A DNA stretch of 64,000 nucleotides, from assembly GCA_046330055.1 (NCBI GenBank), contig JAXLTM010000008.1, forward strand, positions 12,182-76,181, read 5' to 3'. This DNA is from Bacteroidia bacterium (GTDB taxonomy: Bacteria; Bacteroidota; Bacteroidia; AKYH767-A; 2013-40CM-41-45). The number at the start of each line of letters is the position of its first letter. The first letter of the stretch is position 1. Of the stretch, positions 14,847-56,498 are shown piece by piece. The notes under the pieces were generated by a model. That model did no database searches and was not told the DNA's origin. It saw only the letters and a list, made by a program, of their open reading frames with translations. A program made the position numbers and the translations under genes.

Positions 14847-14883
14847 GGTTGCCGGTTAGATAGTTGGCTGATTGCTGGTTTTG

Positions 14884-14954: not shown

Positions 14955-15011
14955 GGGATTTTAATTACTTTCGATAATTAACCTGTTTGACTGAATTATA
15001 CCCGATCAAAT

Positions 15012-15067
15012 AAGTATCCAAGCATCCAAGTATCTAAGCATCCAAGTATCCAAGCAACAAAGCAACC
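15012..15067. repeat. (AAGYATCC)x5 plus (AAGCAACM)x2 octamer array
   Basis: Read directly. It abuts the left end of the IS element. Confidence 0.9.
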
Positions 15068-15074
15068 TGTCCGT

Positions 15075-16454: not shown

Positions 16455-16464
16455 TAGGTCAACC

Positions 16465-16499
16465 ATTCAATATTCAATTTTCAATATTCAATATTCAAT
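16465..16499. repeat. (AATATTC)n array, direct copy of 14172-14202
   Basis: The 31 nt at 16469-16499 are identical to 14172-14202. It starts 10 nt after the IS right end. Confidence 0.9.
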
Positions 16500-16660
16500 T
16501 AAATACTTACATGGCTTACAATATCTCACCCCTGATACCGTTACCATAACACACTCTTCCATGTAGCCCTCCTCTTTTCCCCGATTTTAACAGCAGTACT
16601 TTATAATTTGTATGAACTGCCGGGAAGGTGTCGATCCCCCTTAAGTAAATTGCTATCCTT

Positions 16661-35003: not shown

Positions 35004-35243
35004 ATGACTCTTTTACGAGAAAATCCGCGGGTCGCCCGCGAAGTTGTCATGACAAATGGCAAAGAAACATTGGTAAAGTTCATCGTCGTCGCTGATGGCA
35101 TGGACCAACAGAACATCGCACTCGCTAAACGCGCACTGCGTCAAGAGGTCGAGAAGTTCAAGGATACGGTCGGGAAACCGTTCAACGGCTACGCTGGGGA
35201 AGAGAATCCGTTCGTCTACTTTGTGTTGCATGACAACATGTAA
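35004..35243 (+). CDS. Hypothetical 79-aa protein
   Basis: ORF with clearly higher GC than its surroundings, followed 8 nt later by a strong intrinsic terminator. No family was recognised. Confidence 0.45.
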   Translation: MTLLRENPRVAREVVMTNGKETLVKFIVVADGMDQQNIALAKRALRQEVEKFKDTVGKPFNGYAGEENPFVYFVLHDNM

Positions 35244-35573: not shown

Positions 35574-36035
35574 TTATCTCATTCCTGCCATGATAAGAGC
35601 GAAAATTGCGATCACAAGGTATAAGCTCAGAATAACGATTGTCAGAATTCCGAAGAACCTGAAATTCGATTTCAACCAACGGAAAGCTTGTGTCATTTGC
35701 TCTGTATTTCTGGAATCAATGGCTGTTTGCGCATTTACTGAGAATCTGTAGAGATAAAGGCAAGGGAAAAAATACAGCAAGGAAAAGAGTATATAAACAA
35801 AACCTACCAGTCCTCCCATTCCCGCTGCTCCAAGAGCTCCGCCACCACCCATTGTACCAAGCATACTGCCGGCAAAGATTCCGCCGAGTATCATTATTGC
35901 GCAAAAAATAAATCCTAAAATGGCAAAGAACTTTGCCCACTTTGCTGTTTGACGAATGTAATCTAATGCATCCAGCGACAAGCCAATTTCAGCAGAACCG
36001 GATTTCATTTGTTGATCTAAAACATTATTTTCCAT
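35574..36035 (-). CDS. Hypothetical integral membrane protein (4 TM, Gly-rich loop)
   Basis: 153 aa of hydrophobic segments with GTMGGGGALGAAGMGG. No confident family call. Confidence 0.55.
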   Translation of the reverse strand: MENNVLDQQMKSGSAEIGLSLDALDYIRQTAKWAKFFAILGFIFCAIMILGGIFAGSMLGTMGGGGALGAAGMGGLVGFVYILFSLLYFFPCLYLYRFSVNAQTAIDSRNTEQMTQAFRWLKSNFRFFGILTIVILSLYLVIAIFALIMAGMR

Positions 36036-36186: not shown

Positions 36187-36648
36187 ATGTCTACTGATAT
36201 AATCGACTCCTTCACTTCCATCGAACCGCCTTATAAGCGGAATCTGCCCGCTTCAAACACAAAGCGCTTTCTGAATTACCTCATCGACACTATTGCATTT
36301 TATGTAATTGCTCTTATCGGTGCCGTTTACTTCCAGCTGCGAAACGGCGAACTCACCATGCCTGAAGTATACGGACTTACAGCCTTGTCCATCATCATCT
36401 ATTATTTTCCTCTCGAAGCTCAGTCCGGAAAAACGCTCGGTAAACTGATTACCGGTACACGCGTGGTCACTGTTGAAGGAAATATCCCTACCTGGCAAAA
36501 CATTCTCGGCCGTACTCTTTGTCGATTCATCCCCTTCGATAATTTTTCTTTCCTTTTCACTACCGGCTTTCATGATAATTTTTCGAAAACAATCGTGGTT
36601 GACGAAAAGAAATTCGTTGAAGAAGCTGATAGTTGGGGACGTAATTAA
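36187..36648 (+). CDS. RDD-family membrane protein
   Basis: 153 aa with an RDD-type core (RFLNYLIDTIAFYVIALI ... GKTLGKLITGTRVV). Confidence 0.7.
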   Translation: MSTDIIDSFTSIEPPYKRNLPASNTKRFLNYLIDTIAFYVIALIGAVYFQLRNGELTMPEVYGLTALSIIIYYFPLEAQSGKTLGKLITGTRVVTVEGNIPTWQNILGRTLCRFIPFDNFSFLFTTGFHDNFSKTIVVDEKKFVEEADSWGRN

Positions 36649-36669
36649 ATAATTCGCTAAGTATTTGAA

Positions 36670-37401
36670 TTATCTTGTTAAAACAATATAATCCCTGATC
36701 AGCCCCTGTAAAAACGAAACCGGACTACCTTCAACGACGGTAATATTCAATCGTTTTCGGAGTATGGATGAAAGTTCGGCGAGGGCCTGAGCATGAGCCT
36801 GATTGGGATATTTGACATATTGATCAATCGCTGATTTAATAATCAACATCTCCTTCTCCGACATTTGTAACACTTCGCGGTATTTAGGCGGCGAATCGGA
36901 AATGGTGCGCATACGCTCGAGTTGCTTTAAGCCGAAGAGTTGCCCTTTTAACTTGACCTTGATTACTGTTGTATTGGCAAGAATATCGCCCAGTCGTTGA
37001 CTTCGTGTGGTTGAATTCACCATCACCGTACCCAAAACCCCTAATGAAAAGTAGATATCGATGACTCTGAATGCCCACCGGATAAGATAATCTGAAATGC
37101 GCGCTTCCGTTCCGTTCACTTTCACCACTTTTATTCCCAACACGCGCTTGCCTATACTCGTGCCGTTTCCTCTGATTTCTGAAACCAGTGAATAAAAGAA
37201 CAGCACAGGGAGGATGGAAAAGTACTCTTTATATTCGCTAAGATAAGGACCGAATAGAGTTCCGTAAATGATACTCAAGACTAACATGATGATGAGCATT
37301 ACAAGAATATCAACCAACAATGCCAGGCCCCGTTCTTTTACATCGGCAAGCGTGTATTCAATGGTGACATTTTGTGCTGTCCGTATCTCAAGAGTTCTCA
37401 T
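36670..37401 (-). CDS. RDD-family membrane protein with a C-terminal soluble extension
   Basis: 243 aa (RGLALLVDILVMLII ... TSIGKRVLGIKVV). It is divergent from the SpoIIM-like operon. Confidence 0.7.
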   Translation of the reverse strand: MRTLEIRTAQNVTIEYTLADVKERGLALLVDILVMLIIMLVLSIIYGTLFGPYLSEYKEYFSILPVLFFYSLVSEIRGNGTSIGKRVLGIKVVKVNGTEARISDYLIRWAFRVIDIYFSLGVLGTVMVNSTTRSQRLGDILANTTVIKVKLKGQLFGLKQLERMRTISDSPPKYREVLQMSEKEMLIIKSAIDQYVKYPNQAHAQALAELSSILRKRLNITVVEGSPVSFLQGLIRDYIVLTR

Positions 37402-37471
37402 CCAAAAATATTCTTTACATTTAGGGCAATTCTGACAACTTTCTACAGCTGAACCGGAAGATTACCACTTT

Positions 37472-39277
37472 ATGAAGGAAACGAATTTCATCGACCAAAA
37501 TAAGGATAAATGGCAGGAACTGGAAACACTTTTAAAGAAGAACGAAAAGATCCTGACAAACTTTCCAGTCTCTTTATTAAAGTTTCCGATGACCTTTCTT
37601 ATGCACGCACCTTTTATCCGAACCGTTATGTAAGGAGTTTATCTGAACGATCTTGCTCAGCAACTCTTTCATTCCCTTTACAAGAATAAGAAAAATAAAT
37701 CCAATCGCTTCTTTCTGTTCTGGAAAGAACAACTGCCTGATTTAATGTACAGCGTGAGAAAAGAATTACTCACCTGTCTGGTCATCTTCATCATTTCTGT
37801 TGTCATCGGTGTGTTTTCAATGCGTCACGATCCGGGATTTGCAAGAATCATACTCGGCGACAGTTATATTAAGATGACGGAAGAAAACATCAGAAAGGGG
37901 GATCCGATGGGTGTGTATAAACAAAGTGAAGGAACCATTATGTTTCTTCAGATCGCAATAAACAACCTGCGTGTCGACTTTTACATTTTTGTGCTTGGTG
38001 TCGTTGTAGGAATTGGCTCGGTTTTCATGGTCATGTATAATGGAATTATGGTGGGAGTATTTCAGTACTTCTTTTTCCGGGCCGGATTATTTCTGACATC
38101 GTTCCTTAGCATCTGGCTGCATGGAACACTGGAAATGTCGGCAATGATCATTGCCGGAGCCGCCGGAATTACCATGGGCAAAGGCCTTGTTTTTCCGGGA
38201 ACTTTCAGGCGAAATCAGTCTTTCTTTATAGGCACCAGGAAAGGAATTAAAATTCTCATCAGCACATTTCCGATAACGATTGTTGCCGCTTTGATCGAAA
38301 GCTACCTCACTCGTCATACTGAAATGCCTGCAGTGTGGAAAGGACTTCTCATTTTCGCCAGCTTCACCTTCATATTACTCTACTTTGTAATCTATCCTTA
38401 CCTGCGTCACAAACGCGGACACATGGCAACGATCGAAGAAGCCGATCTGCAGCCTGAGTCTACAGATACTTACGATTATCAGTCTGTTCAAAGCAGCGGT
38501 AATATCTTCAAGGAAGTCTTCAATTTCTTCCGTGACGACGGCGGAAAAATTCTTCGGATGTCATTAGGAGCCGGAATTGCAGCCACAGCTTTAACAGCGG
38601 CCATCAATCACTACATGGGTTATAACAGATCCATGACACAGTGGACTCCGCTGATTTCTATTTTTCATTATGGCTTATTCCCTCCCGCTTATTTTATTAA
38701 TACCATTTTTCTTGCACTCATCTTTTACTACACTTCACTCTTTATTTGCCGAAGGGAAAATCGAGCCTTCAGAACCGGACGATTTACTATCCTGCAAACA
38801 ATACTATTCAGTGCATTGATCAATCTGATCCCATACACTCCATTGTGGGCAATTCTTCTTATCTTGATTTTTCTCGGACCAATGCTTTTTCTCTGGTATG
38901 GCCAGTTCTATTATCATCGGACTAATCTGTTCAAAGGACTTTTCAAATCCTACAAATTATTTTCCGCTACTGTGCTGACGTGTTACGGCAATTACTTTCT
39001 GTTACTTCTCACTGCCACATTAGGCTTTTTGATTTTACAATCACCGTTACTCGCATTTTACATTGCCATCATACAGTGGAATTATACCGGCGACGATGCT
39101 TCTGCCAAATTATTCGGTCATCTGATTGTCGACTTCACTTCCTATTTTGGTCTTGGAATTATAGTGCCGTTTCTGATCGCAGGAAACTTCCTGAACAGTT
39201 TTCATATCAATGAAATTGTAAGCGCCGGAGGATTGCTCAAAAAAATACGTTCACTTCAAATTGATCAGGAAAAATGA
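37472..39277 (+). pseudogene. SpoIIM-like (DUF95) membrane protein with an extra C-terminal polytopic domain; the 5' end is disrupted
   Basis: MKETNFIDQNKDKWQELETLLKKNEK reads in frame A. The conserved DPDKLSSLFIKVSDDLSYARTFYPNRYVR reads in frame B. The sequence then returns to frame A for VYLNDLAQQLF..., which continues into the 37745-39277 ORF. SpoIIM core motifs are present (YNGIMVGVF, WLHGTLEMSAMIIAGAAG). Confidence 0.6.
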
Positions 39278-39963
39278 AATGGGCAAGCACTCCGGGCATT
39301 CGTTTATTACTGATTTTATTAATCGGCTTTTCCCTGCTGATTACACCATCCTATATATCTGTTTCAGCAGCCGCTACTTCAAAAAATGAAATCAGCAAGT
39401 CAAGCTGGAAACAAAAAACAAGCGAATATAAATTTAAGCTTCCCCCCCGCCCTTCTCTTCCTAAAGACAGAAAGAAAATGGATTTCTCTTTTCTGGATGG
39501 TCTTTCCAAACCGCTTGGATATGTCCTGATCACTATCGTAGTAATCCTGCTTGTCTATTTCGTAATCAGAACGCTCATTGAAGCTCCTGATAAAAAGTTC
39601 AAAGATATAGCTTCAGAAACCGCTACTGATGACGATGAAATCACGATAGAATCTGACCTGGAAAGCTTGTTAAAAGAAGCACTCAATTCAGGGAATTACC
39701 GTGCTGCAATCAGAATTTATTATTTGAAAGCACTGAAATTACTCGGCGAAAAAAACATTGTCAGCCCGTCGAGAGAAAAAACCAACTTCGAATACCTTGT
39801 AGAAATCGGTCCGCATCCCGTGTTTAATCTTTTCAGGGAAATGACAATGATTTTCGAACGCAACTGGTTCGGGCGCGACATACCATCAGAAAGTACGCTG
39901 AATGATTATGCCGGAAAGCATAACAACCTACAGCAAATCATTCAAAGCAACGGGGAAAAATGA
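39274..39963 (+). CDS. DUF4129-domain membrane protein
   Basis: 229 aa with a signal/TM, a second TM, and a C-terminal segment ...YYLKALKLLGEKNIV...NWFGRD typical of DUF4129. Its ATGA overlaps the upstream gene. Confidence 0.6.
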   Translation: MKWASTPGIRLLLILLIGFSLLITPSYISVSAAATSKNEISKSSWKQKTSEYKFKLPPRPSLPKDRKKMDFSFLDGLSKPLGYVLITIVVILLVYFVIRTLIEAPDKKFKDIASETATDDDEITIESDLESLLKEALNSGNYRAAIRIYYLKALKLLGEKNIVSPSREKTNFEYLVEIGPHPVFNLFREMTMIFERNWFGRDIPSESTLNDYAGKHNNLQQIIQSNGEK

Positions 39964-41345
39964 AATCGAGAAACACCATTTTCCCAATTGCAATTGGCGC
40001 TGTACTTGTTGTAGTACTGACGTTGGTATATCTGAATTTACCCAACTCTTCGAACTGGCAGAAGTTGTACAGGAATGATAAATCAGACCCCTACGATGTT
40101 CGAATGATCTATGAATTGCTTCTTGACAGTAGAAACGGCAAAGATAACCACGTCATATTCGAAGGCAACGACCATGCACTTCAGACAAGAATAGAAAAAT
40201 CCAACTACGTTTTTATCGGAGAAAGATATTTTGGAGATTCAGCAGATGCAGAACACCTTCTTCGTTTTATTGAACGGGGGAATACAGCCTTCATCGCCGT
40301 AGAGCAATGCCCGGATTTTTTAGCTGAACTTTTAGAATACACTTATACCTCAACTGACTCCACAAGTACAGAGGTTGATGATGAAGTCACCGATGAAGTT
40401 GATTCTGTTTTGACAGAAGAGTCACCTGATTCTACTGAAGACTCCGATGCGGCTCCACCTCCCTACGACACAGCAGGATTCATTCAAGCGTACCAGCCCC
40501 AAAGTTTTTTTCGTTCACTCGTTGACTCTGTAGGAGCCAGTACGCTGACTGATTCAAGCTATGCCTCTGTAATCTGCAAAGTCCAAAAAATTAATTTTCT
40601 TTATTTCCCGGAGAACTGGCAGGGAGTTGACACATCATTAGTTTACATAAAAGATGATGTCACCCTAAAAGGCAAATTGAACTATACCATTTTTAATTAC
40701 TTCGAAATAAAATATGGGAAAGGCAAAATTCTTCTGCACCTGACTCCAATTAATTTCACGAATTATTCAATCCTTTCTGAAGACAATTTTGATTACAATC
40801 GCGCCGTTTTTGCAGGACTGAATGATGGTCCAATTATTTGGGATGAGTACGATAAACAATACCGTTTCCTCGACAAAACAACCAATGAGGAAGAGTTACC
40901 GCCATCACCATTTCGTTACATCTTATCTCAGAGTAGCCTGAAGCAAGCCTGGTACCTGAGTCTTGCACTTATACTTATATATTTTGTGTTTATAGGTAAA
41001 CGAAAACAAAGAGTGATCCCCGTAATCGAACCGGTCAGAAATACGTCGCTCGAATTTGTCAAGACAGTCGGACAAGTATATTATCTTGAAAGGAATCACC
41101 GCAGTATTTGTTTGCATAAGATCCGACTCTTTTATCAGTTCATTAAACACCGCTATCACCTTTCCACTCCGGAGAATACGCAAGTATTCCGCGAAAGGCT
41201 TTCTACCATTTCAGGAATAGATATCGAACTGATCAATGAAATATTCAACGAATTCACCATCATAGAAAAAGAAATTTCCGTGGAAGACAAAAAATTTATT
41301 CACTTCCATCAATTACTCACAAGATTTTATAAAGACTGCAAATAA
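39960..41345 (+). CDS. DUF4350-like membrane protein with an acidic Ser/Thr/Asp/Glu-rich insert
   Basis: 461 aa with an N-terminal TM, an acidic linker (TSTDSTSTEVDDEVTDEVDSVLTEESPDSTEDSD), and a late TM. It occupies the position between DUF4129 and MoxR typical of this cluster type. The family name is from memory. Confidence 0.5.
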   Translation: MKSRNTIFPIAIGAVLVVVLTLVYLNLPNSSNWQKLYRNDKSDPYDVRMIYELLLDSRNGKDNHVIFEGNDHALQTRIEKSNYVFIGERYFGDSADAEHLLRFIERGNTAFIAVEQCPDFLAELLEYTYTSTDSTSTEVDDEVTDEVDSVLTEESPDSTEDSDAAPPPYDTAGFIQAYQPQSFFRSLVDSVGASTLTDSSYASVICKVQKINFLYFPENWQGVDTSLVYIKDDVTLKGKLNYTIFNYFEIKYGKGKILLHLTPINFTNYSILSEDNFDYNRAVFAGLNDGPIIWDEYDKQYRFLDKTTNEEELPPSPFRYILSQSSLKQAWYLSLALILIYFVFIGKRKQRVIPVIEPVRNTSLEFVKTVGQVYYLERNHRSICLHKIRLFYQFIKHRYHLSTPENTQVFRERLSTISGIDIELINEIFNEFTIIEKEISVEDKKFIHFHQLLTRFYKDCK

Positions 41346-41347
41346 CC

Positions 41348-42349
41348 ATGGAATCAACACCTGAAGAAAGACCGGAAAGTACTCCAAAACCGGAAAACAC
41401 TGAACTGATGATGTTCAGCGAAGACATTGTTCGTCTGAAAAACGAAATCAGAAAAGTGATTATCGGTCAGGACAAAACCATTGACTTGATGCTGGCAGGC
41501 TTCTTAAGCGGCGGACATGTATTGCTGGAGGGTGTACCCGGCATTGCAAAAACAATGATTGCAAAAACGCTGGCAAAAACCATGTCGGTCAATTTTTCGC
41601 GCATTCAATTTACGCCTGATATGATGCCGACTGATGTCACAGGTACTTCAGTTTACAACCTGCAGAAATCGGAATTCACTTTTAATAAAGGACCGATTTT
41701 CTCCAACTTCATTCTCATTGACGAGATCAATCGTGCTCCGGCAAAAACGCAGGCTGCTTTATTTGAAGTCATGGAAGAAAAGCAGATCAGCATCGACGGC
41801 ATCACTCACTTTCTTGAATTTCCGTTTTTTGTTATCGCCACACAGAATCCGATCGAACAGGAAGGTACTTACAAACTTCCGGAAGCACAGCTTGATCGTT
41901 TTATATTCAGGTTACTCATGGACTACCCCGATCTGAAGCATGAAGAAGAAATTCTGAAACGTTTTTCGGAAGACTTCAATATGAAAACCATTGATAGCGT
42001 TCAGCCGGTGTTAACCATTGCCAAACTGGCCGCTTTCCGTAAGCTTATTGAGAAAGTGCTGATTCGCGAAGAGCTCATTCAGTACATTGCCAAGATTACA
42101 CATGCCACCAGAAATCACGGCGCAATTTTCCTTGGCGCTTCACCACGTGCATCTCTTGCAATATTGAAAACAGCCAAGGCCTGTGCGGCTATGCAAGGAC
42201 GGGATTTCGTAACACCTGATGACATCAGAAAAGTTGCAGAGCCCGTTCTGAATCACCGTATCATTATTAATCCGGACAAAGAAATGGAAGGCTATACAGC
42301 CGCTGCCGTTATCCGCGAAATCACGCAAAGCATCGAAGTGCCTCGTTAA
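41348..42349 (+). CDS. MoxR-family AAA+ ATPase
   Basis: 333 aa. Walker A GVPGIAKT, Walker B ILIDEINRA, and the MoxR-type motif ATQNPIEQEGTYKLPEAQLDRF. Confidence 0.9.
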   Translation: MESTPEERPESTPKPENTELMMFSEDIVRLKNEIRKVIIGQDKTIDLMLAGFLSGGHVLLEGVPGIAKTMIAKTLAKTMSVNFSRIQFTPDMMPTDVTGTSVYNLQKSEFTFNKGPIFSNFILIDEINRAPAKTQAALFEVMEEKQISIDGITHFLEFPFFVIATQNPIEQEGTYKLPEAQLDRFIFRLLMDYPDLKHEEEILKRFSEDFNMKTIDSVQPVLTIAKLAAFRKLIEKVLIREELIQYIAKITHATRNHGAIFLGASPRASLAILKTAKACAAMQGRDFVTPDDIRKVAEPVLNHRIIINPDKEMEGYTAAAVIREITQSIEVPR

Positions 42350-43680
42350 TGCAGAAGATCAGAGAAATATTTCTTCCGGTTCGCTTCTTTCTCGCAGGGG
42401 CAATGATCTGCTTTGTCTTTATCAGCGGATTCTTCTTCCCTGTGATGATTTCCGTAGCACAATTCTTACTGATGCTGCTGCTTGGAATTGTCGTCGCAGA
42501 AAGCATCTTTCTGTTCAGAAGTGTTGAACCTGTTCATGCAGAACGGACTTCACCGGCAATAATGAATCTGAGCGATGAAAATTCATTTACAATTACCGTT
42601 CAGAGCAGAATGAAAACGAAAGCTGAAATTACGATGATCGACGAACTGCCGGATCAGTTTCAGCGAAGAAATTTCTCCTATGATTTTACTCTGAAACCCG
42701 GCGAAGAAAAAAAGTTCACGTACACCCTTCGCCCGGTAACCCGAGGTGTGTATGCATTTGGAAAAATCCACTTCTTTGTCTCCATTTTTTCAGGAATGGT
42801 TCAACGAAGATACAGTGTGAATGAATCTGAAAACGTTGCCGTTTACCCTTCTATTCTTCAAATGAAGAATATGGAGCTAAAAGCTTTCTCACGCATTTCA
42901 CTTCAGAGCGGAATCAAACGCCTTCGCCGGATTGGCCACAGTTATGAATTCGAACAAATCAAAAATTACGTGGCAGGAGACGACATTCGGAGCATAAACT
43001 GGAAAGCAACAGGAAGAAGAGCTGCACTGATGTCGAATCAATATGAAGACGAAAAATCCCAGCAGGTATATTTCATCCTCGACAAAAGCCGCAGCATGGG
43101 ATTACCATTTAATGATCTTAGTCTGCTCGATTATTCCATCAACACTTCCCTGGTGATGGCAAACATTGCGCTTCGAAAAGGCGACAAAGCAGGATTAATA
43201 TCCTTCGGTTCAAAAATTGAAACACTGCAGAAAGCGGACCGCACACACAGTCAGTTACGCCGCATTTTACAGTTGCTCTATAAAGAAAAAGAGCATCACG
43301 GTGAAGCGAATTACGAAATTCTTTATTCGGCAGTACGCAATGTTGTACGCATCCGAAGCATGATTATTCTCTTCACGAATTTCGAAAGCACCTATGCTAT
43401 GGAACGCGCCATGCCGGTTCTCAGGAAAATCAACCGTTTTCATTTACTCGTTGTCGTTATATTTAAAAATACGGAAATCGAAAACTTTGCCGCCCGACCG
43501 GCTCATTCCATCAGCGATATATACTTACAGACCATCGCCGGCAAATACAACTCCGATAAAGAACACATGGCTACACAGATGCAACTCTACGGCATCCAAA
43601 CCATCTACACCGAACCCGAACATCTCTCGGTAAATGTACTCAACAAGTATCTGGAGTTGAAGGCGAGGGGGATGATTTGA
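42349..43680 (+). CDS. DUF58-domain protein (vWA-like) with an N-terminal 2-TM anchor
   Basis: 443 aa. DUF58 signature region YVAGDDIRSINWKATGRRAALMSNQYEDEK...YFILDKSRSM. Its start overlaps the moxR stop. Confidence 0.85.
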   Translation: MQKIREIFLPVRFFLAGAMICFVFISGFFFPVMISVAQFLLMLLLGIVVAESIFLFRSVEPVHAERTSPAIMNLSDENSFTITVQSRMKTKAEITMIDELPDQFQRRNFSYDFTLKPGEEKKFTYTLRPVTRGVYAFGKIHFFVSIFSGMVQRRYSVNESENVAVYPSILQMKNMELKAFSRISLQSGIKRLRRIGHSYEFEQIKNYVAGDDIRSINWKATGRRAALMSNQYEDEKSQQVYFILDKSRSMGLPFNDLSLLDYSINTSLVMANIALRKGDKAGLISFGSKIETLQKADRTHSQLRRILQLLYKEKEHHGEANYEILYSAVRNVVRIRSMIILFTNFESTYAMERAMPVLRKINRFHLLVVVIFKNTEIENFAARPAHSISDIYLQTIAGKYNSDKEHMATQMQLYGIQTIYTEPEHLSVNVLNKYLELKARGMI

Positions 43681-43818
43681 ATTAGCTAATTGGATAATTA
43701 GCTAATTTGCCAATTAGCAATTTAGTTTTGTCGCAAGTTCATTATTCTACTAAACTACTAATCTTCTAATCTGCAATTAGCAAATCAGCTAATTGGCTAA
43801 TTGGCTAATTAGCTAATT
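43681..43818. repeat. Two (TTAGCTAA/TTGGCTAA)-type arrays (43681-43726, 43774-43818) flanking a 47-bp spacer
   Basis: Read directly. The arrays are mutually complementary because the unit is palindromic. The DUF58 TGA abuts the left array, and the msrB stop (43809-43811) lies inside the right array. Confidence 0.9.
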
Positions 43819-44228: not shown

Positions 44229-44257
44229 AAATTAGCTAATTAGCTAATTAGCTAATC
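44229..44257. repeat. (TTAGCTAA)x3 array
   Basis: Read directly. Same unit as 5229-5255. Confidence 0.9.
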
Positions 44258-44373: not shown

Positions 44374-45148
44374 GGCCTGATAAGCTTCATCGGTCTTTTA
44401 GAATTCGATTTTCGTTGAATTAATATTTTAATGCCTTCTGCTTCATAAGCGTCATCCTCAATTGATAATCTGTATAACCGGCATCTCCGTAAACCTTGCT
44501 TTCTGAAGCTATGTTAAGTGGTAATTTTTTCAATCCTGCACTGTCATTTTCATTTCCCGGCACGAAACTAAATTCTACCGGAATACCATCGCTAGTGGTC
44601 AACACATGTATTTTGACTCCATAAAAGTATCGGTGCATACTTGCGTGTTTGCCTCTCCATTGCTTGCCTTGAATCAGTTTGCATCGACTAATTCGCATAT
44701 TATCACAAACCGGCACCGGAAAGGAATCTACTAAATAATCCGAAGCTCCTGCTATCATTTTCAAGTATTCCCCAACCTGAAAGAACAACATGACAATAAT
44801 GTCCTGCAGTGCATGAAGACGTCTACAAAAGCGACTCTTGTCTAACATGTTCGGGCACATTTTTGTCATTCTCATGAATTGACGGGCGTTATCCAAATGA
44901 CCACCGAAATACAAGCTGGAAACAATGGCAGTGGTGATGATCTCGCTGTCACTAACTTTTCGATTTTCGTGCTCCTTATGATGAATTCCTTTAAGCAGAT
45001 CATCGATTATACAATAAATTGATATAATTTTACCTTCCTGAAGCATTGTGCGATATTTTAGGACGTCGTAATCTCAAAAATACTCAAGCAATGCTTCTTT
45101 ATTTACTCCTTGTCTGATTTTTAATAACTAGCAACTTAGGAAAGACAA
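44374..45148 (-). mobile_element. IS982-family element remnant (transposase ORF 44420-45046, 3'-truncated)
   Basis: The 208-aa ORF has an IS982-type N-terminal and DDE region (YCIIDDLLK..., DSFPVPVC, GDAGY). A frameshifted tail (..RKSNSKRP..) runs into repeat copy 1. No matching inverted repeat was found at the truncated end. Confidence 0.65.
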
Positions 45149-49020: not shown

Positions 49021-50533
49021 ATGAAAAGATTCTTTTCGCTCACTTTTCTCGCCTCGTTTTAACAATGACACAGGCACAAGACTATCAACTTTTCATCAGC
49101 AATCGCGCTTATGAATTTGAATTCTCTTTCGGAGGACAAAACCATTTTGCACGCTTTCGCTCTGTGCCGCCGACAGTAACGGCTAATGACAGCATCTTTC
49201 ACAACTACCCTTGCGGAAATGACGATAATCTTTTGGTCCACCGGCGAATGGACAGGAATATTTTTCCGATACAGCATGGAGCGGATATCAGATTGTTGTT
49301 TCACCCAATGGCGACAATCTGCTTCTCAACCGATTCTCAGATACACTTCTATTTAAAACCTTTGCACAACCGGGCGACAACTGGACATTCTATCAATTCA
49401 CAAATGGCGATTATTTTCTTGCAAGCCTCGACTCTGTAAAGCTTGATTCAGTTATGGGGTTGACTGATTCAATTAAGTACATCTCTATTGCCCGCTTCGA
49501 TCAAATCGGAAATCCCGTTTTCGATTCGCTTAATCAGTTTACGTTTGCAGTCAGCAAAACATATGGCCTGGCAAAAACGGTTAACATCAAACACTTTCCG
49601 CTTTCCACAACCATTTACCAATTAAGAGGTATTGAGTCTTTAGCCGGAGAGCAACGGATGACTCCGGGAACAATTTTCAATTATGACCCCGGCGACGTTT
49701 TTCATTACACCTATTTCGAGCGCACTTCACTTGATCTGTATACCACAAAACTGGAAAAAAGAAGAGTGCTCAGCCGAACGGTTCAATCCAACTCTATTGA
49801 CTACACTATTGAAGACTCACTCTACGTCAGCATTTACAATTCCGCTACAACAACAACAAGTGATACAATGATTGTTGACACTATCCTTGAAACCGTCAAT
49901 ACAGGATTATATGATTTTGATTCTCTGTGCAGCAAAGAGCCGTACTTTGCATCAATGTTTTCAATCACTCCATACAATTACATGACGTCGTGGCACAGAG
50001 GCGTGAATGACAGAAGAGCGATTTACACCGTCCCATGTCTGGAATCATTCGGTGTTACACCACCATTTAATATCATGCGTTCGATTGCCGGATGTACAAG
50101 TTCCGGTTATGCTTTCCCAAACAGTGAAAATGTTTTTGTTGAAGGATTGGGCTTATTTCACGAAGACTCATCGTTAGATTCAGCCTCATCTGTTTATTCC
50201 AGTGAGAAAGACCTCGTGTATTATCAGAAAGGCAGTGAGAGCTATGGTACACCACTGGCATTTCCTCTCATCAATAACATTCGCACCCCGGAAACCGACA
50301 ACATCACCCTCTACCCCAATCCTGCCCGCGATATCATCACCATAAGCGGTCTGGCCGGCACAGAAGAACTAACACTCTACACCCCACTGTTGCAAAAGAC
50401 TTCAATCTCCACCAGAGCCACAGAAAAGAAGATCCAACTTCAGGTATCCACTCTGCCTCCGGGAATGTATTTGCTTTCGATCTCTTCCTCAAGCTATCAG
50501 TGGTGGAAGAGAATTGTAGTTTCAAGGCAGTAG
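49021..50533 (+). pseudogene. T9SS-sorted secreted protein, 5' third frameshifted
   Basis: MKRFFSLTFLASF starts at 49021, followed by at least 3 frame changes before the intact 49454-50533 ORF. The C-terminal T9SS type A domain is ITLYPNPARDIITI...LPPGMYLLSI. Confidence 0.65.
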
Positions 50534-50548
50534 GTGATGGGAAAGAAT

Positions 50549-50582
50549 AATTCAGAATTCAGAATTCAGAATTCAGAATTTA
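50549..50582. repeat. (AATTCAG)x4 array
   Basis: Read directly. Confidence 0.9.
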
Positions 50583-50618
50583 TTTTTTAAATCTCTTGCG
50601 CAGTCAAATAACTGCATA

Positions 50619-50626
50619 TATATTTG
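50619..50626 (+). promoter_or_regulatory. Candidate -7 box TATATTTG overlapped by an inverted repeat (CTGCA-8 nt-TGCAG)
   Basis: Exact TAnnTTTG match 20 nt before the ArsR-family ATG. The inverted repeat is at 50612-50629, and the direct repeat ATAACTGC is at 50608 and 50634. Confidence 0.45.
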
Positions 50627-50646
50627 CAGCCATATAACTGCGTATT

Positions 50647-50979
50647 ATGGAAACAAGAAGAGACGTGTTTCAGGCCATTGCTGATCCTACGCGACGGGCG
50701 ATATTGACGTTAGTGGCCTTACAGGCTATGACGCCGGGAGCTATTGCGGAGAACTTTGAATCATCGCGCCAAACGATTTCTAAACACATTCAGATACTCA
50801 CTGAATGTCAGCTGCTCAAGCAGGAACAGTCTGGCAGAGAAATCCTTTACCATTTCAACCCCAAAAAAATGAAAGAAGTAAACGACTGGATTCAACCGTT
50901 CCGTGCTATGTGGGAAGACCGATTTGACCGCATGGATAAAGTGCTTGAGCAGATGAAAAAGAATAGAAAACAATCTTAA
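50647..50979 (+). CDS. ArsR/SmtB-family transcriptional regulator
   Basis: 110 aa with a winged HTH ([16 protein letters not shown]...ISKHIQIL). Confidence 0.8.
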
Positions 50980-50991
50980 AATTCAGAAGAA

Positions 50992-51477
50992 ATGAAAACT
51001 CAAATTATTGCCGAACCCGGCCAACAAGAACTATTTATCATTCGCGAATTTGATGCTCCACGAGATTTGGTTTACCGGGCATTCTCGGAAACAGAGTTGA
51101 TCCGGGAATGGATGGGGCCAAAAGATCTAACATGTGAGATAGAATTTCTCGACAACCGCTCTCATGGTTCCTGGAGGTTTATTCACACTGCTCCCGATGG
51201 AAATAAGTACGCATTCAACGGCGTCATTCATGAAGTGTGCCCTCCGGAGCGCATTATCCGAACTTTTGAATTTGAAGGAATGCCGGAAAGAGGTCATGTT
51301 TCGCTGGAGTTTCTTACATTGGAGAGTTTACCGAATGACAGAACAAAAACTGTCATTCATGTCATATACAAATCAGTTATGGATCGCGACGGTCATGTGA
51401 TGTCGGGCATGGAGAGAGGCGTTACAGAAGGGCATGAGCGCCTGGATCAACTTTTATTGAATTTAAAATCGAATTAA
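50992..51477 (+). CDS. SRPBCC / AHSA1-domain protein
   Basis: 161 aa, with the common ArsR-AHSA1 gene pairing (RDLVYRAFSETELIREWMGP). Confidence 0.7.
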   Translation: MKTQIIAEPGQQELFIIREFDAPRDLVYRAFSETELIREWMGPKDLTCEIEFLDNRSHGSWRFIHTAPDGNKYAFNGVIHEVCPPERIIRTFEFEGMPERGHVSLEFLTLESLPNDRTKTVIHVIYKSVMDRDGHVMSGMERGVTEGHERLDQLLLNLKSN

Positions 51478-51493
51478 TCCTAAACTACTTTTC

Positions 51494-51925
51494 GTGGAAA
51501 CAAAAGGAAATAATTTGTTCAATGGCATTTCCGAGCCGGAACTGGTGGATGAGTATATGGAAAAACTGAAACACCCCTTGAAAGAGGTTGTAGAGTATGT
51601 GCGTGCATTCATTTTATCAGTCGATAAAAAAATCGGCGAAGGAATTTATTGGAATGCGCCTTCGTTTTACTACATCGGAAAAATGAAGCCATTTGCACCT
51701 AAGGAATACAAGAGATACATAATTGGCTTTGTATTGAATCGCAAGGACATGATCAGAATGGTTTTTCTGACCGGGGCAAAAGTAGACGATCAAACCGGAA
51801 TTCTGGAAGGCGATTACAAAGACGGAAGAAGGCTTATCACTTTCAAAACGATTGATGAATTTAAAACGAAAGAAAAGAAATTGAAAAAGGCGATTAAGGA
51901 TTGGATCAAATTAATAGATAAATAA
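51494..51925 (+). CDS. DUF1801 (YdhG-like) domain protein
   Basis: 143 aa, GTG start, with the motif GIYWNAPSFYY. Confidence 0.55.
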   Translation: METKGNNLFNGISEPELVDEYMEKLKHPLKEVVEYVRAFILSVDKKIGEGIYWNAPSFYYIGKMKPFAPKEYKRYIIGFVLNRKDMIRMVFLTGAKVDDQTGILEGDYKDGRRLITFKTIDEFKTKEKKLKKAIKDWIKLIDK

Positions 51926-52346
51926 TGGGAACAATTAAAATTGAGCGACTCTTTGATGCGCCGGTTGAATACGTGTGGAAAGCACTAACAGAATATGAAT
52001 TGATGAAACAATGGTATTTTGATCTGCCCGATTTCAAAGCAGTCAAAGGTCATGAATTCAGATTCTACGGTGGTCCAAGCCCGGAAAGGCAGTACCTGCA
52101 TGTTTGCACCGTTCTCGATGTCATCGAAAATAAAAAGCTTAGTTACAGCTGGAGATACGAAGGCTATGCAGGTAATTCTGTTGTCACTTTTGAACTCGAA
52201 GCGAAAGGGAAAACACATTGCTTAGATTCTCTCATAGCGGTTTAGAATCCTTCCCGGCCGACAATGCAGATCTCGCTTCTTCGAATTTCGAAATCGGATG
52301 GAATCATATCATCAATACTGCTCTGCTCAACTTCATCAACAAATAA
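51925..52346 (+). pseudogene. Second SRPBCC/AHSA1-domain gene with one frameshift near 52205-52220
   Basis: ORF 51925-52245, then continuation in the +1 frame (..LRFSHSGLESFPADNADLASSNFEIGWNHIINTALLNFINK) to the TAA at 52344-52346. Confidence 0.6.
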
Positions 52347-52347
52347 T

Positions 52348-52563
52348 ATGAGTGAAGTTGAAATTTTCAAAACCAACGTCAGTGCCTCGCATCAAGCCGA
52401 AGAAATCTTAGGAACGTTGCACTTCAACTTCCCTACCCTTCAATTCAACTTCGATCTCGACGATACTGATAAAATCCTCCGCGCCGAAGGCCCGAACATC
52501 GAACCGGCTACAATTATTTCGTTCGTACAAAATCTTCAATTCGACTGTGAACACATTATGTGA
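52348..52563 (+). CDS. Hypothetical 71-aa protein
   Basis: MSEVEIFKTNVSASHQAEEILGTLHFNFPTLQFNFDLDDTDKILRAEG... The start is 1 nt after the preceding stop. Confidence 0.5.
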   Translation: MSEVEIFKTNVSASHQAEEILGTLHFNFPTLQFNFDLDDTDKILRAEGPNIEPATIISFVQNLQFDCEHIM

Positions 52564-52588
52564 TACTCTGAACAAATTGAAGCATTGT

Positions 52589-52760
52589 TTCAGCGGGTGG
52601 CATTTCATTTTTTTTACCACAAGTGCACAAGGAACACAGAGAGGCACAAGGAATTCAGAATTATGAATTCAGAATTCAGAATTTAAACATATCTGCCTCT
52701 CTTCGTGAATCTCAGTGCTCTTTTGTGGCCTTTGTGGTAAAAAAAGATTCCTTGTAATGA
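52589..52760. repeat. Palindromic composite element family A, copy 1
   Basis: TTTTTTACCACAAGTGCACAAGGAACACAGAG, then a central (GAATTCA)n, then CTCAGTGC..CTTTGTGGTAAAAAAAGATTCCTTGTAAT. The outer blocks are mutually complementary. Confidence 0.85.
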
Positions 52761-52827
52761 GTCTCCACTTTTTTAAACAACCAACTAATTTAAACATCAT
52801 CCAAAGGCCCGTACAAAATGCAATCGC

Positions 52828-54230
52828 TTAGAGGATGATCAATTTCACAAGCCGACCAGTTAAAATGAATGCTGACCTGATAAATTCTTTTGGAAGATTC
52901 TTTGTACTTATTTCGTATTGAAGTATGATGAAGTTTCTGAACTGGAAATCATCCTGCCTTCCATATCGGTTATATCAACCCTTCCCTGCTCAGCCCGACA
53001 TGATTGTACTGATTGAAACACTTCCCGGTAGACGGGTTCGGGAAAATTTTAAAAGAAAACTGCGCTGATCAGATTCCGAAATACTTTGACCGAACACCAT
53101 GATGTTAAATCAGGCCCCAATTGAAAATTCGGATGATTCGGAATACTGTGATAATAAATTCTTGTAGTTACATACCGTTGTTGAAAATGACAACTGACTC
53201 CGGGTAAATCCGAAATTCAATCCGATGAAAGGAATGCGTACTGCTTCGTCGTCATGTATATTTTTCCGTCACGAGCTAAGGCCATATAGAAAATTGAGTA
53301 GACAACCAACTATCTTCAAAAGCTCCATCCCAAATGCCTATCAAGGTTTTCGACTGAGACAAATTTGCCACCTGAGTGTCGTACTGGTAAATATAATTTG
53401 TATTTGAGAGATATAATACTGGAATTAGAGAAAAGCAATTCCGTAAGCACCAATTATTGTATCTACGTAAGGAACATATCTTGCAGAACTGAATGCCCGG
53501 TGCACCGATCGAAGTCAAATAGCTGCAAGCCAACTATATCGAAACTGACATACTGATGTCCATCAGAGAAAAACAAGAGTAACCAAGAACGCTCGTATTT
53601 CCAATCTGTTGTCTGCTTACTAACTGAATCCTGAATCAGAAATGAGAAAACGGTTCGCTTTGGTCCATGTTGTTCAGCAATTACCAGCCACCAGTCATGG
53701 CCGTTGCCATGCTACACGCGGATAATTGTCCCGGCTGAATTGAATCATTGAAGACAGAAACATTTTTAATTGTTACGGCCCCAAGACCGAATTCAAACGC
53801 ATATCCACTTTTGCAAAAGTTAAACGCACGATGCACTGCCTGTCCACTCACTCGGATTGTAAAAAACATAGTATTGATTTGTATTCCGTGATCGGGAATA
53901 ATAATGGATTCCTGAGGTATAGCTTCCGTCATTTGAAGGATCACAACCATCGAGACAAATTAAACTATCACCATTTTGCATAATATGATTGGAAGAATCA
54001 CCAATCTTTGCTCCATTGATTGCAAAAAAACCTTCCATCCGGCGACGAAATGGAAGTGGCACATCCTGCAAAATAAATTCTGTCGATTGAAGCAGTATCC
54101 GGCGTTGAATACAAAATCCATGTTTGATCCGCCATACCTCGGTACCGAATAATTACTGTAACTCATTACCCAATGGTTTTCAAATTGCCCAAATACAGGA
54201 ACTGAGTCAGAAGAAATAAACAAGTACAAG
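52828..54230 (-). pseudogene. Heavily decayed T9SS-cargo gene remnant
   Basis: Only short minus-strand ORF fragments remain. A CTD-like end (..LPKEFIRSAFILTGRLVKLIIL*) stops at 52828-52830. The upstream boundary is approximate. Confidence 0.35.
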
Positions 54231-54235
54231 ATTTC

Positions 54236-55680
54236 TCATTGAATCACCAGAAATTTATGAATATAATTTCCCGCTTCATCTTCAATCAATATTAAATACA
54301 AACCATTTGTTTAAATGACAATTCCTGAGTCATTGAAAATGTCGACTTATTAAACGAGTAAGTGTTTTCCACGCGACCATTCAGGTCAATAGTAGTGACT
54401 GATACTTTTCCGTAGTGCGGAGAATTAATGGTCGTAGGCATTTCAAAATGATTTCAACACTAATAAAAACATTGCCGGAATTTTCGATAGCATTGGTAGT
54501 AAAAATATCGTATCGTCTGTTGTTGCAATACAAGGATAGTAACCCGAATAAAGTATATCTGAAAATATATATTGCATAGTGAGAGTAAATGGAAAGCGCC
54601 AACGGTTGAATACGAATTGTAGGCGATGGGACCTATACTCTGAAAAGGAACTTCGGAAATGTCCAGCGCCAACTTAACTCTTTCGGGAAATGTCCGGTTT
54701 GAAAAGTAATTTGTTGATTTAAATAAGCCGGATCCGTATGATAAAATGAGGGAGTGTCGGATTGTCCAATTCCGAATGAATAGAATCCATTCCATTGGCA
54801 TTGTAAACAACCATATCGACTGTTTGAGAAGCTTTGGAACTGTAAGTATAGTAAGGACTGAATTCAGAAACGGTTCCACCGGAAAATACCAACGTACTGA
54901 ATCAGGAGCGCCAATGAGGTATTCAGAAAATGACTGTTAAGCCATCGCAATAAGTATAACTTTAAAGGAAGCCTGAGGCGGATCGGGCGTGTGACTGTTT
55001 ACGATTACGGAATAATCTTCCATATCATTTACATGATACCAATCCTGACCCGATTAAAAAATGGGACGTTCCGATAGTAGTGCAAACTACTCTTAATCTT
55101 AATGGCACCCTGAAGAGACTATCTTTGACATGAGGAACAACTATCCGAAACGAATGGTTTGTTAACGCACTGCTCTCACCAACAATTTCTTCCTCTGAAA
55201 TCGCCCATCGGCATTTGCATCCAGAAAAACAGTTATGTATTCCTTATCTAAGGTATCGTTAGAAGCCTGATAAACTGACCTTCATTCAGGATTACCTGAT
55301 CGCTGCGCGTAGTCATCAACTACACAATCTCCGTAAGCCGTTCCGGAGGATTTATTATACCATTCAATTGGAGTTAAAAATAATTCCCCAAAGTATTACA
55401 ATGCGTTTTATAATTGAACACAGGATGAGTTATGATTGATATCTGTACAGTATCAGTAAAGGAATCAACAGGAAGGCCCCAGAATTGAGGTAACGATAAT
55501 ATTTAATAAAGTAAGTTCCGGAATTGAGGTATTGATGAATCATATATGTAGAAAGCCTCCCCCATCACCGAAATTCGCCTTCTTCTCATAGAATCCGGTT
55601 GTTGTGTCATTGATGATTACGTAATCCTTTAAACTCAAAAACGGATTATTGAATGCAATAGCCTTCCCGTGGTGAAACAT
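54236..55680 (-). pseudogene. Heavily decayed T9SS-cargo gene remnant
   Basis: A CTD end is readable (..IDLNGRVENTYSF.. / ..GLYLILIEDEAGNYIHKFLVIQ*) with its stop at 54236-54238. The upstream coding sequence is fragmented over all frames, and the 5' boundary is approximate. Confidence 0.4.
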
Positions 55681-55935
55681 ATCATCACAATGAAAACAAA
55701 TCTTATAAATACATTATTGCGCATTCCCGGAAGATGGTATGGGTATTGAATTCGAATTTGAATTGAAATCGAAATCTGAAATTTTACATTTATGCAATAT
55801 ATTTAGATTTTCTCAGAAAGCCAGCTTTTCCTTGATCCATGCATTATTGTGATCTTGCAGCAAAAAGAGTGAAATTTAATCAGTCAGGGCTTTATTCAAT
55901 ATGATTGTGAGTGCTTTAACACAGCGTAGATTTAT

Positions 55936-56117
55936 TTCAGTGGGCGTACATTTTCTTTTTTTACCACAAGTGCACAAGGAACACAGAGGGAATTCTGAAT
56001 TATATTTCAGAAATTCTGAATTCAGAATTCAGAATTCAGAATTTTAAGCATATCCAACTTTTCGGAACCTCTGTGCAACTCGTGCCCTTGTGGTAAAAAA
56101 GAATTCCTTGTAATTAG
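55936..56117. repeat. Palindromic composite element family A, copy 2
   Basis: Same terminal blocks and orientation as 52589-52760, with a longer central (GAATTCW)n. Confidence 0.85.
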
Positions 56118-56291
56118 CTTCCCAAAACCCAAACAGTACCCGAAAAAATAAAACAACAACCCCACGACCTCTCGCCCCAGCAATAGTGACCTCTCGGTGG
56201 CCAATCTCTTTGTCAAATCAACTAAGCTCTTTTAAGAATTCAGAATTCAGAATTTCTTTGGCTTTGCCTTCTGACCTTTAACTTACTTATG

Positions 56292-56360
56292 TAGCCCGTG
56301 CGGAATCGAACCCGCGTTTCCTCCGTGAAAGGGATGTCCTAACCCCTAGACGAACGGGCC
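56292..56360 (-). tRNA. tRNA-Glu(UUC)-like sequence, apparently degenerate (69 nt)
   Basis: - The reverse complement reads GGCCCGT TC GTCT AGGGGTTA GGAC A TCC CTTTCAC GGAGG AAAC GCGGG TTCGATT CCGC ACGGGCT A.
- The acceptor stem, D arm, CTTTCAC loop and T loop fit tRNA-Glu.
- The 5' strand of the anticodon stem is 2 nt short, and the T stem lacks one C.
- No CCA is encoded. Confidence 0.5.
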
Positions 56361-56498
56361 ATCTTTTGGGGACGGCAAGGTAGTGTTTTTGATTAAAAAA
56401 CCAACTTTGTTGAGAAAAATATGCGTTTTGTTAGGGATTGAAAAAGAGGAGATTGTGCGGAAAAACTCGTTTCTTTCGCCCTTCCGCCACCTCGCCTG

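Follow-up and report, generated by a model that had tools for sequence, protein, structure and literature searches.

MoxR-family AAA+ ATPases act with vWA-domain partners as maturation or assembly factors (PMC11834572, PMC8430577). Among the gene sets related to the one described below, the Bat operon of Bacteroidota (MoxR-DUF58-BatA-BatB-BatC(TPR)-BatD-BatE) is the only one with mutant phenotypes, which concern stress tolerance and virulence and were obtained with MoxR/Bat mutants of Riemerella, Francisella, and Bacteroides (PMC11834572). In 2015, Makarova, Galperin, and Koonin predicted that DUF4350 (arCOG01314), MoxR (COG0714), and vWA proteins form a "secretion or membrane remodelling complex", and bacterial SpoIIM homologues were reported to adjoin vWA and COG0714 genes (PMC5898192). 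Neighbouring genes of Mycobacterium chelonae annotated as DUF4350, MoxR, DUF58, SpoIIM, RDD, and membrane protein are jointly down-regulated, and they are orthologous to Rv3691, Rv3692, Rv3693, Rv3694c, Rv3695, and Rv3689, respectively (PMC8191103). In M. tuberculosis, purification of the divisome-associated bait Rv0954 also recovers Rv3694c (SpoIIM) and Rv3695 (RDD) (PMC8093794). Three genes of Pseudomonas aeruginosa, PA2875, PA2874, and tgpA, are co-transcribed according to reverse transcription PCR (PMC3507681), and a DUF95/SpoIIM-family protein implicated in leader cleavage, circularisation, or secretion is a hallmark of circular-bacteriocin clusters (PMC6131525, PMC13463998). Herein, we describe a cluster of SpoIIM, RDD, DUF4129, DUF4350, MoxR, and DUF58 genes within a 64,000-nucleotide (nt) stretch of a Bacteroidia genome, referred to as the window.

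The body of the cluster consists of five plus-strand genes. They encode a SpoIIM-family fusion protein (37472-39277; 601 amino acids (aa) when intact, frame-disrupted in the window), a DUF4129 protein (39274-39963; 229 aa), a DUF4350 protein (39960-41345; 461 aa), a MoxR AAA+ ATPase (41348-42349; 333 aa), and a DUF58 protein (42349-43680; 443 aa). The SpoIIM/DUF4129 and DUF4129/DUF4350 junctions are ATGA overlaps at 39274 and 39960, the DUF4350/MoxR junction holds a 2-nt gap (TAAccATG, 41343-41350), and moxR adjoins the gene of its vWA partner, where the stop codon of moxR ends on the base that begins the DUF58 gene, base 42349 being common to both genes (TAATG, 42347-42351). A conserved RDD-family partner, RDD2 (36670-37401, minus strand; 243 aa), is divergent from the SpoIIM gene, and the 70 nt between the two (37402-37471) are presumed, from their sequence, to be the promoter region. 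The surroundings are housekeeping genes (nuo, msrB), with a convergent msrB following the DUF58 gene. Every coordinate and gene junction in the preliminary description of this locus agreed with the open reading frames (ORFs) and the sequence. The family names that it had given (RDD, SpoIIM, DUF4129, DUF4350, AAA_3, and DUF58) were likewise recovered by Pfam, the DUF4129 copy falling just below its cut-off. The scores were 63.9 bits for RDD2 (PF06271, cut-off 24.1), 120.7 bits for SpoIIM (PF01944, cut-off 26.9), 21.5 bits for DUF4129 (PF13559, cut-off 24.8), and 35.8 bits for DUF4350 (PF14258, cut-off 30.4). MoxR scored 212.1 bits with AAA_3 (PF07726, cut-off 27) and 97.6 bits with AAA_lid_2 (PF17863), and DUF58 scored 64.4 bits with PF01882 (cut-off 23.4) and 29.8 bits with VWA_2 (cut-off 27). 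A simple hydrophobicity scan found strong hydrophobic segments in all cluster products except MoxR, the sole soluble, cytoplasmic component, as had been expected of a system anchored in the membrane; topology calls throughout are based on crude hydrophobicity and charge counts.

The tightly packed operon of one MoxR AAA+ ATPase and five to six membrane proteins is real, and its junctions, domains, anchors, and conservation support the original view of a co-operonic, mostly membrane-anchored MoxR/DUF58 system. The overlapping stops and starts suggest that the five plus-strand genes are translationally coupled and co-transcribed. In the divergent intergenic region, TACATTTA at 37417-37424 fits 7 of 8 positions of the Bacteroidota -7 consensus, TAnnTTTG. 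A sigma-70 scan returned 19 sites against 18.6 expected, no better than shuffles, with a model unsuited to Bacteroidota. The Rfam scan of the whole window gave nothing in or near the cluster, and NCBIfam held no specific family for any of its membrane components.

We then asked how far this arrangement extends. Degenerate patterns for two DUF4350 motifs taken from a 13-sequence alignment, KR[KTQ]QR[VI]IPV and NTSLEF, were scanned against one genome per species, and DUF4350 relatives with both motifs were found in at least 563 species. The best 80 loci were searched with profiles built from the window proteins, and 56 of them had enough flanking sequence to be informative. In 27 of these 56 Bacteroidota loci, all seven modules stand in the order of the window, namely, RDD2 (divergent), SpoIIM core, second polytopic domain, DUF4129, DUF4350, MoxR, and DUF58. 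The preliminary description had staked its proposal on conservation of the neighbourhood beyond this one genome; these complete loci, and the other phyla discussed below, provide it. Partial module sets occur in 15 further loci. In another 14, the DUF4350 gene lies among unrelated genes, and in 10 of those DUF4129 is still beside it. The Bernardetia locus retains only the divergent pair of RDD and SpoIIM-fusion genes. Linkage therefore breaks between, and not within, the RDD-SpoIIM, DUF4129-DUF4350, and MoxR-DUF58 pairs. The cluster is also present in Prevotella, Spirosoma, and Mucilaginibacter, and Prevotella sp. oral taxon 299 has the same gene order as the window. Most loci have short or negative spacing between genes, under a start-codon choice that favours short distances. 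The nearest other species is only 43% identical in DUF4350 and 60% identical in SpoIIM, so the window comes from a poorly sampled lineage.

In RDD2, an RDD membrane domain is followed by a conserved domain of about 100 aa at the C-terminal end; the protein's N-terminus and extreme C-terminus (FLxxLxxDYIVxTR) are conserved as well. In 41 related loci it always adjoins the SpoIIM gene and is divergent from it. Two RDD genes had been placed upstream of the operon at the outset, and both are there; only RDD2 is a conserved partner. The other, RDD1 (36187-36648, plus strand; 153 aa; 54.3 bits with PF06271), is a short RDD-family membrane protein with positional counterparts only in four assemblies of the same population (L001-L004), and it is best described as a lineage-specific accessory. 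Two loci, L007 and L062, carry extra short RDD genes downstream of DUF58.

Outside Bacteroidota, a tblastn search of plasmid records with the N-terminal half of SpoIIM matched Rhizobium and Paracoccus replicons, and the same search with DUF4350 matched only Prevotella. The Rhizobium and Paracoccus genes run in the order DUF805, a 255-aa protein, a 424-aa protein, MoxR, DUF58, SpoIIM, and RDD, on one strand and with overlapping stops and starts. Pfam assigned the two unnamed proteins to DUF4129 (19 bits, weak) and DUF4350 (34 bits). The same permuted operon stands on a Leisingera chromosome, and a protein search seeded from Rhizobium and covering Alphaproteobacteria found relatives across Rhizobiales and Rhodobacterales. 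The RDD2 counterpart in these operons is co-directional with SpoIIM and overlaps it by 4 nt. The mycobacterial genes Rv3689-Rv3695 (MAB_0386c-MAB_0392c) are likewise annotated as DUF4350, MoxR, DUF58, SpoIIM, RDD, and a transmembrane (TM) protein; they belong to another phylum and envelope type, follow a permuted order, and are likened to the window cluster through published annotation rather than sequence comparison. The same gene set is thus found in mycobacteria and Alphaproteobacteria as well as in Bacteroidota; its recurrence in many species and in three phyla puts the arrangement far outside what chance would give. A gene for a small DUF805 membrane protein always stands ahead of the alphaproteobacterial cluster, with two copies in Rhizobium (L087 3530-4629, L088 4251-4691, L090 6785-7234). 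As a counterpart of the second polytopic domain, DUF805 was rejected (hhalign, 0.2%).

MoxR has a close solved relative in PDB 2R44 (E = 3.7e-86). Its motifs for Walker A (GVPGIAKT), Walker B (LIDEINR), and the sensor 1 and arginine-finger region (TQNP, LDRF) are at least 90% conserved in 56 orthologues and intact in the window. DUF58 begins with a hydrophobic segment at residues 6-60, a TM hairpin, and its whole soluble, presumably cytoplasmic part is highly conserved, ending in a vWA domain with a partly conserved site resembling MIDAS, the metal ion-dependent adhesion site. The motif reads DKSRS in the window copy. Within the family, D245 is found in 40/40 members, S247 in 37/40, and E346, which replaces the usual Asp, in 38/40; T/S285 is also conserved. 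Position 249 is A, S, or V, with Ser in just 12/40; the window copy has Ser. D245 is invariant across phyla. Neither single-sequence nor profile searches of PDB sequences with DUF58, DUF4350, or SpoIIM returned a relative.

The MoxR-DUF58 core is shared with the Bat operon, which is also found in Bacteroidota and also has membrane-anchored partners. The cluster could accordingly be a variant of a Bat-type stress-tolerance operon, in which the core would aid oxidative or heat resistance, and the published stress and virulence phenotypes of MoxR/Bat mutants lend this idea some appeal (PMC11834572). In the Spirosoma arcticum locus (L005), moreover, two genes lie between MoxR and DUF58 (12417-14242), one for a 333-aa protein with weak lipocalin-like matches and one for a TPR protein of 275 aa. 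The latter recalls BatC, a hint that parts have been exchanged with Bat-type operons. In most loci, however, the TPR gene is missing, and the genes for BatA and BatB (TM-vWA proteins) are not in the cluster. SpoIIM, RDD, DUF4129, and DUF4350 take their place, none of which is a Bat component. The cluster had been set apart from the Bat operon from the beginning; the missing BatA, BatB, and TPR genes and the convergent msrB after DUF58 uphold that distinction, and we consider a Bat-type variant quite unlikely.

MoxR-vWA modules also occur in ternary systems with beta-propeller proteins, and a role of the cluster in anti-phage defence or biological conflict may be imagined by analogy. MoxR does match Pfam bpMoxR at 44.7 bits and, weakly, the AAA+ components DolB, IetA, and mad8 in PADLOC. 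These similarities are generic to AAA+ proteins, and PADLOC matched none of the six other cluster proteins. Effector domains are absent, the flanking synteny is stable within lineages, and the surroundings are of a housekeeping kind rather than a defence island, which makes such a role extremely unlikely.

The flanks bear on another proposal, that MoxR and its vWA partner serve as a chaperone for the neighbouring complex I. Escherichia coli RavA-ViaA acts on Nuo and fumarate reductase. By analogy, the nuoA-D genes about 2 kb upstream in the window could encode the client, and genes for succinate dehydrogenase/fumarate reductase are found close to the cluster in Spirosoma. When 781 flanking ORFs from about 80 loci were clustered, the recurrent neighbours were tRNA methyltransferase, histidine kinase, OmpA-PD40, TPR, and radical-SAM genes, and respiratory genes were not among them. 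The clusters of Alphaproteobacteria and Mucilaginibacter have unrelated flanks. Since the clustering revealed only lineage-level synteny, we rejected the respiratory link, to which we assign hardly any probability.

DUF4129 usually stays beside DUF4350 when the DUF4350 gene is found among unrelated genes. The DUF4129 assignment of the sub-threshold window copy is backed by positional orthologues, which score 46.2 bits in Spirosoma and 40.5 bits in locus L009 and are annotated as DUF4129 in Mucilaginibacter. Residues 169-174 read KTNFEY, matching the TxxEY-type motif of the Pfam entry, and K169, T170, N171, Y174, and E177 are at least 90% conserved in 69 orthologues. The conserved motifs are KTNxxYxxE and TxxFExxW(Y/F)G. 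Hydrophobic segments lie at residues 3-33 (signal or TM) and 73-106 (TM helix), and from the sequence the C-terminal helical domain is probably cytoplasmic. Operons of MoxR, DUF58, and a transglutaminase (P. aeruginosa PA2875-PA2874-tgpA and the bifidobacterial PFNA cluster) resemble this part of the window in that a membrane protein bearing an extracytoplasmic domain comes after MoxR and DUF58. We take PA2875 and PA2874 to be MoxR and DUF58 proteins, and TgpA-type proteins to end in a DUF4129 domain. Unlike these operons, the window cluster has no transglutaminase core, and its DUF4129 protein is a stand-alone bitopic protein.

In DUF4350, hydrophobic segments at 3-30 and 327-345 coincide with helices in an AlphaFold2 model built from 37 homologues (mean predicted local distance difference test (pLDDT) score 75). 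The model comprises an N-terminal helix, an alpha/beta domain with a disordered insert (133-218, pLDDT <50), a TM helix (325-348), and a C-terminal four-helix domain (helices 363-460, pLDDT >90). The strongly acidic insert singled out in the preliminary description is evident from the composition of residues 126-175, with 16 D/E, no K/R, and 16 S/T. Foldseek matches of the ectodomain were weak but coherent, comprising GH42 trimerisation domains, the IFT52 GIFT domain, and STM1381 at probabilities of 0.9-0.99, E-values of 0.01 or worse, and low TM-scores. These belong to the same fold class as GldG, to which the ectodomain was likened by HHpred (PMC5898192). The matches are consistent with a periplasmic GldG/GIFT-like domain, and the model with a cytoplasmic four-helix tail. 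The best-conserved stretch of the protein is the cytoplasmic juxtamembrane motif KRxQRxIPV...NTSLEF, which is near-invariant, as expected of an interface with cytoplasmic partners. This motif is specific to Bacteroidota. In comparisons across phyla, the only features that DUF4350 retains are its architecture, the motif P..(F/L)(T/N)N, and a juxtamembrane segment rich in arginine. The family has 4,722 cluster representatives at 50% identity. The DUF4129 tail was also compared with the DUF4350 cytoplasmic tail, and homology between the two was rejected (hhalign, 5% probability).

The archaeal DUF4350 complex resembles the window cluster in its DUF4350 protein, which has a C-terminal TM helix and an extracytoplasmic domain likened to GldG, and in its MoxR and vWA/DUF58 components. 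It adds Ig-like S-layer-type proteins (arCOG02884, arCOG03442, and arCOG02487) and does not list SpoIIM or RDD; the window cluster adds the SpoIIM fusion, RDD, and DUF4129, and both are predictions. Following the published forecast for DUF4350, the COG0714 ATPase, and vWA (PMC5898192), the cluster might be a novel protein secretion system, with its membrane proteins as a conduit and MoxR powering or gating export. Components that are mostly membrane-bound or extracytoplasmic, and an ectodomain resembling GldG of the gliding ABC transporter, are in keeping with such a system. The Ig-like proteins of the archaeal model (arCOG02884 and others) are, however, not in the cluster, whose proteins gave no Pfam match beyond the named families, and in the 80 loci we found neither cargo genes nor secretins, no component of the outer membrane, and no secreted neighbour that recurred. 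To our knowledge, MoxR ATPases do not translocate polypeptides. We regard secretion as unlikely.

Precomputed annotation gives the intact product of the SpoIIM gene DUF8413 and SpoIIM domains, and the whole protein runs from an N-terminal helical DUF8413 region through the SpoIIM polytopic core and a linker to a second polytopic domain. An AlphaFold2 model of a 60%-identical, 601-aa orthologue (47 sequences, pLDDT 81) is all-helical, with three N-terminal helices (DUF8413) followed by the polytopic core and, beyond a linker of about 25 residues, the second polytopic bundle. The DUF8413 region is rich in K/R and is therefore probably cytoplasmic. A fold search against PDB gave no match for this model, returning just non-specific transporter hits with TM-scores of 0.16 or less.

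A second large polytopic domain on the SpoIIM protein had been part of the preliminary description, and comparison across loci both confirmed it and revealed its history. Core and second domain are one ORF in 44 of 45 related loci. They are split in Spirosoma (314 + 295 aa) and Mucilaginibacter (322 + 315 aa), and hhalign relates the fused domain to the stand-alone Mucilaginibacter protein at 95% probability. Prevotella also has a separate ORF at this place; hhalign finds no homology, so the correspondence is one of position only.

A set of polar residues in the SpoIIM core (N165, Y189-N190-G191, H217-G218, E221, R247, and E276) is invariant across phyla and is kept at 22% identity between Bacteroidota and Alphaproteobacteria. 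This observation suggests a functional membrane site rather than a passive scaffold. The invariant His/Glu/Asn/Arg would be compatible with an active site, and the SpoIIM/DUF95 family is the hallmark of circular-bacteriocin clusters. A peptide maturation or export system of that type therefore deserves consideration. Both Bacillus subtilis SpoIIM and the DUF95 proteins of those clusters belong to PF01944, are polytopic, and act with extracytoplasmic partners or substrates. The window protein differs from them in its additional N-terminal DUF8413 region and C-terminal polytopic domain and in its pairing with RDD and MoxR/DUF58. The sporulation partners SpoIID and SpoIIP, which belong to the DMP engulfment complex, were not found in the cluster or its flanks, the source being a Bacteroidia genome. 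A precursor peptide gene, an ABC-transporter ATPase, and a small cationic immunity protein are absent in and beside the cluster, and none recurs across the 80 loci. The housekeeping-like chromosomal conservation of the cluster across phyla is also unlike that of patchy bacteriocin loci, and we judge a bacteriocin-like role very unlikely.

In the window, the SpoIIM gene starts at ATG 37472 and reads openly only from ATG 37745; three-frame translation places the conserved middle segment (DPDKLSSLFIKVSDDLSYARTFYPNRYVR) in another frame. A local frame disruption in this gene had been flagged before, and alignment to the other assemblies traced it to two 1-nt indels, the loss of one A from the run at 37534-37536 and the gain of one A at 37636. 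Separated by 100 nt, these indels bring the reading back into frame, with an in-frame TAA left between them at 37631-37633. The four other assemblies of the same population (L001-L004) have neither indel and carry an intact 601-aa SpoIIM ORF of identical length. Across the whole cluster, the window is 99.6% identical to L001, with 28 substitutions and the two SpoIIM indels, and the exact DUF4350 protein of the window recurs in other assemblies of the population. The intact form is clearly ancestral, and the indels are either consensus errors or a real strain-level inactivation. If they are assembly errors, other genes of the window may be affected as well. Two stretches of the window, 13915-18311 and 50533-56507, contain no ORF of 180 aa or more.

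Building on the gene content, domain identities, hydrophobic anchors, conservation, and modular linkage observed here, we infer a physical complex with the following topology, direction of action, and substrate. MoxR, presumed to be a ring like other AAA+ ATPases, would dock on the vWA domain of DUF58, and DUF58, tethered to the membrane by its N-terminal TM hairpin, would target MoxR there. The SpoIIM-family protein, fused to the second polytopic domain, and the RDD protein would make up a polytopic core, accompanied by the bitopic pair of DUF4129 and DUF4350, each with a cytoplasmic helical tail. The GldG/IFT52-like (GIFT) domain of DUF4350 would offer a periplasmic interaction platform. Using ATP, MoxR would assemble the membrane complex or switch its conformation, and this action would pass through the cytoplasmic domains, that is, SpoIIM DUF8413, the RDD C-terminal domain, DUF4129, and the DUF4350 tail. 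The working part would be the SpoIIM core with its polar cluster (His, two Glu, two Asn, and Arg), and its substrate would lie in the envelope or be extracytoplasmic. The three-pair linkage, the precedent of MoxR with vWA partners, the membrane-anchored DUF58, and the conserved, probably cytoplasmic domains of its partners lead us to favour this scheme, in which a membrane-tethered MoxR-DUF58 module assembles or switches a complex of SpoIIM core, RDD, DUF4129, and DUF4350. In its general form, we give it a slightly better than even chance.

Several observations count against this proposal. About one quarter of the informative loci have DUF4350, with or without DUF4129, away from MoxR/DUF58, and the link is thus strong, not obligatory. 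The canonical MIDAS motif DxSxS is degenerate in most DUF58 family members, the third Ser being the variable position 249, which makes metal-mediated substrate binding uncertain. A K/R-rich segment ahead of the DUF4129 TM helix renders its orientation ambiguous. The SpoIIM fusion matches no solved fold, and the argument for an enzymatic or transport role comes solely from its conserved residues. The SpoIIM gene is disrupted in this very window, and for this organism we infer both the physical complex and the co-transcription.

A bolder version of the MoxR-DUF58 proposal can be formulated. The cluster would encode a hitherto unrecognised type of envelope machine common to Bacteroidota, Proteobacteria, and Actinomycetota, M. 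tuberculosis among them, in which a DUF58-tethered MoxR ring in the cytoplasm passes ATP-driven work across the inner membrane via DUF4129 and DUF4350 and switches on SpoIIM as an intramembrane enzyme or transporter (His-Glu-Glu-Asn-Asn-Arg site), which would process or move a peptide or polymer of the envelope, perhaps where the cell divides. In this full form, it is a doubtful proposition.

DUF58, DUF4129, DUF4350, RDD, and non-sporulation SpoIIM homologues are widespread proteins without demonstrated biochemistry. They are joined here in a single linked set that spans at least three phyla, among them the phylum of a major pathogen, M. tuberculosis (Rv3689-Rv3695). The set ranks among the larger conserved membrane systems that lack a function. 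Its role, once shown, would annotate thousands of genes at once, would provide a second worked example, beside Bat, of MoxR-DUF58 action at the membrane, and could inform DUF95 chemistry in circular-bacteriocin maturation. NCBI annotates the cluster genes with these family names in many genomes, and the window is another instance of a gene set that would not surprise a specialist. The preliminary description considered the set to be without an assigned function. This stands as far as experiments are concerned, since the literature, with most subscription journals outside the scope of the search, gave only omics tables and the 2015 prediction for it. The association itself had been predicted in 2015 (PMC5898192), and the cluster is less novel than first thought. 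New here are the seven-module definition, the points at which the modules separate, the history of SpoIIM as a fused or split gene, the residues invariant across phyla, and the tractable carriers, such as Mucilaginibacter, Rhizobium leguminosarum with a plasmid-borne copy, and M. smegmatis.

Further features of the window lie on either side of the cluster. A gene for a small, DUF5362-like membrane protein with three TM segments (35574-36035, minus strand; 153 aa) precedes RDD1 and is a possible, non-core accessory. It scores 23.3 bits with Pfam DUF5362 (cut-off 25), has a homologue at the opposite cluster end in the related locus L006, and is missing from most other loci. Both this protein and RDD1 were considered as relatives of the second polytopic domain and rejected as unrelated. 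Between nuoA and the DUF5362-like gene lies a 79-aa ORF (35004-35243) with no Pfam match, which is called as a gene in all four of the other assemblies.

Downstream of the cluster, an AT-rich, imperfect inverted repeat of AATTAGCT units occupies 43680-43818, between the convergent DUF58 and msrB genes. Its RNA folds into a long hairpin at -40.2 kcal/mol (z = -5.6 vs shuffles), and this array could serve as a bidirectional terminator. The 8-nt AATTAGCT occurs as tandem or inverted copies at three intergenic sites, the one after DUF58 and two others at 5229-5256 and 44230-44257; the window holds 12 matches against 0.29 expected, and two of the three sites flank msrB. These copies may represent a genome-specific intergenic repeat or terminator. 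Between msrB and an M48 peptidase gene, the window has an 883-nt insertion relative to assembly L001 (44358-45240), which contains a 208-aa ORF (44420-45046, minus strand) whose product scores 53.7 bits with DDE_Tnp_1_3, a DDE transposase domain that is partial here. By its sequence, this insertion is an insertion sequence element that is present in the window strain and missing from L001. The only Rfam match in the window is a tRNA gene at 56292-56360 on the minus strand.

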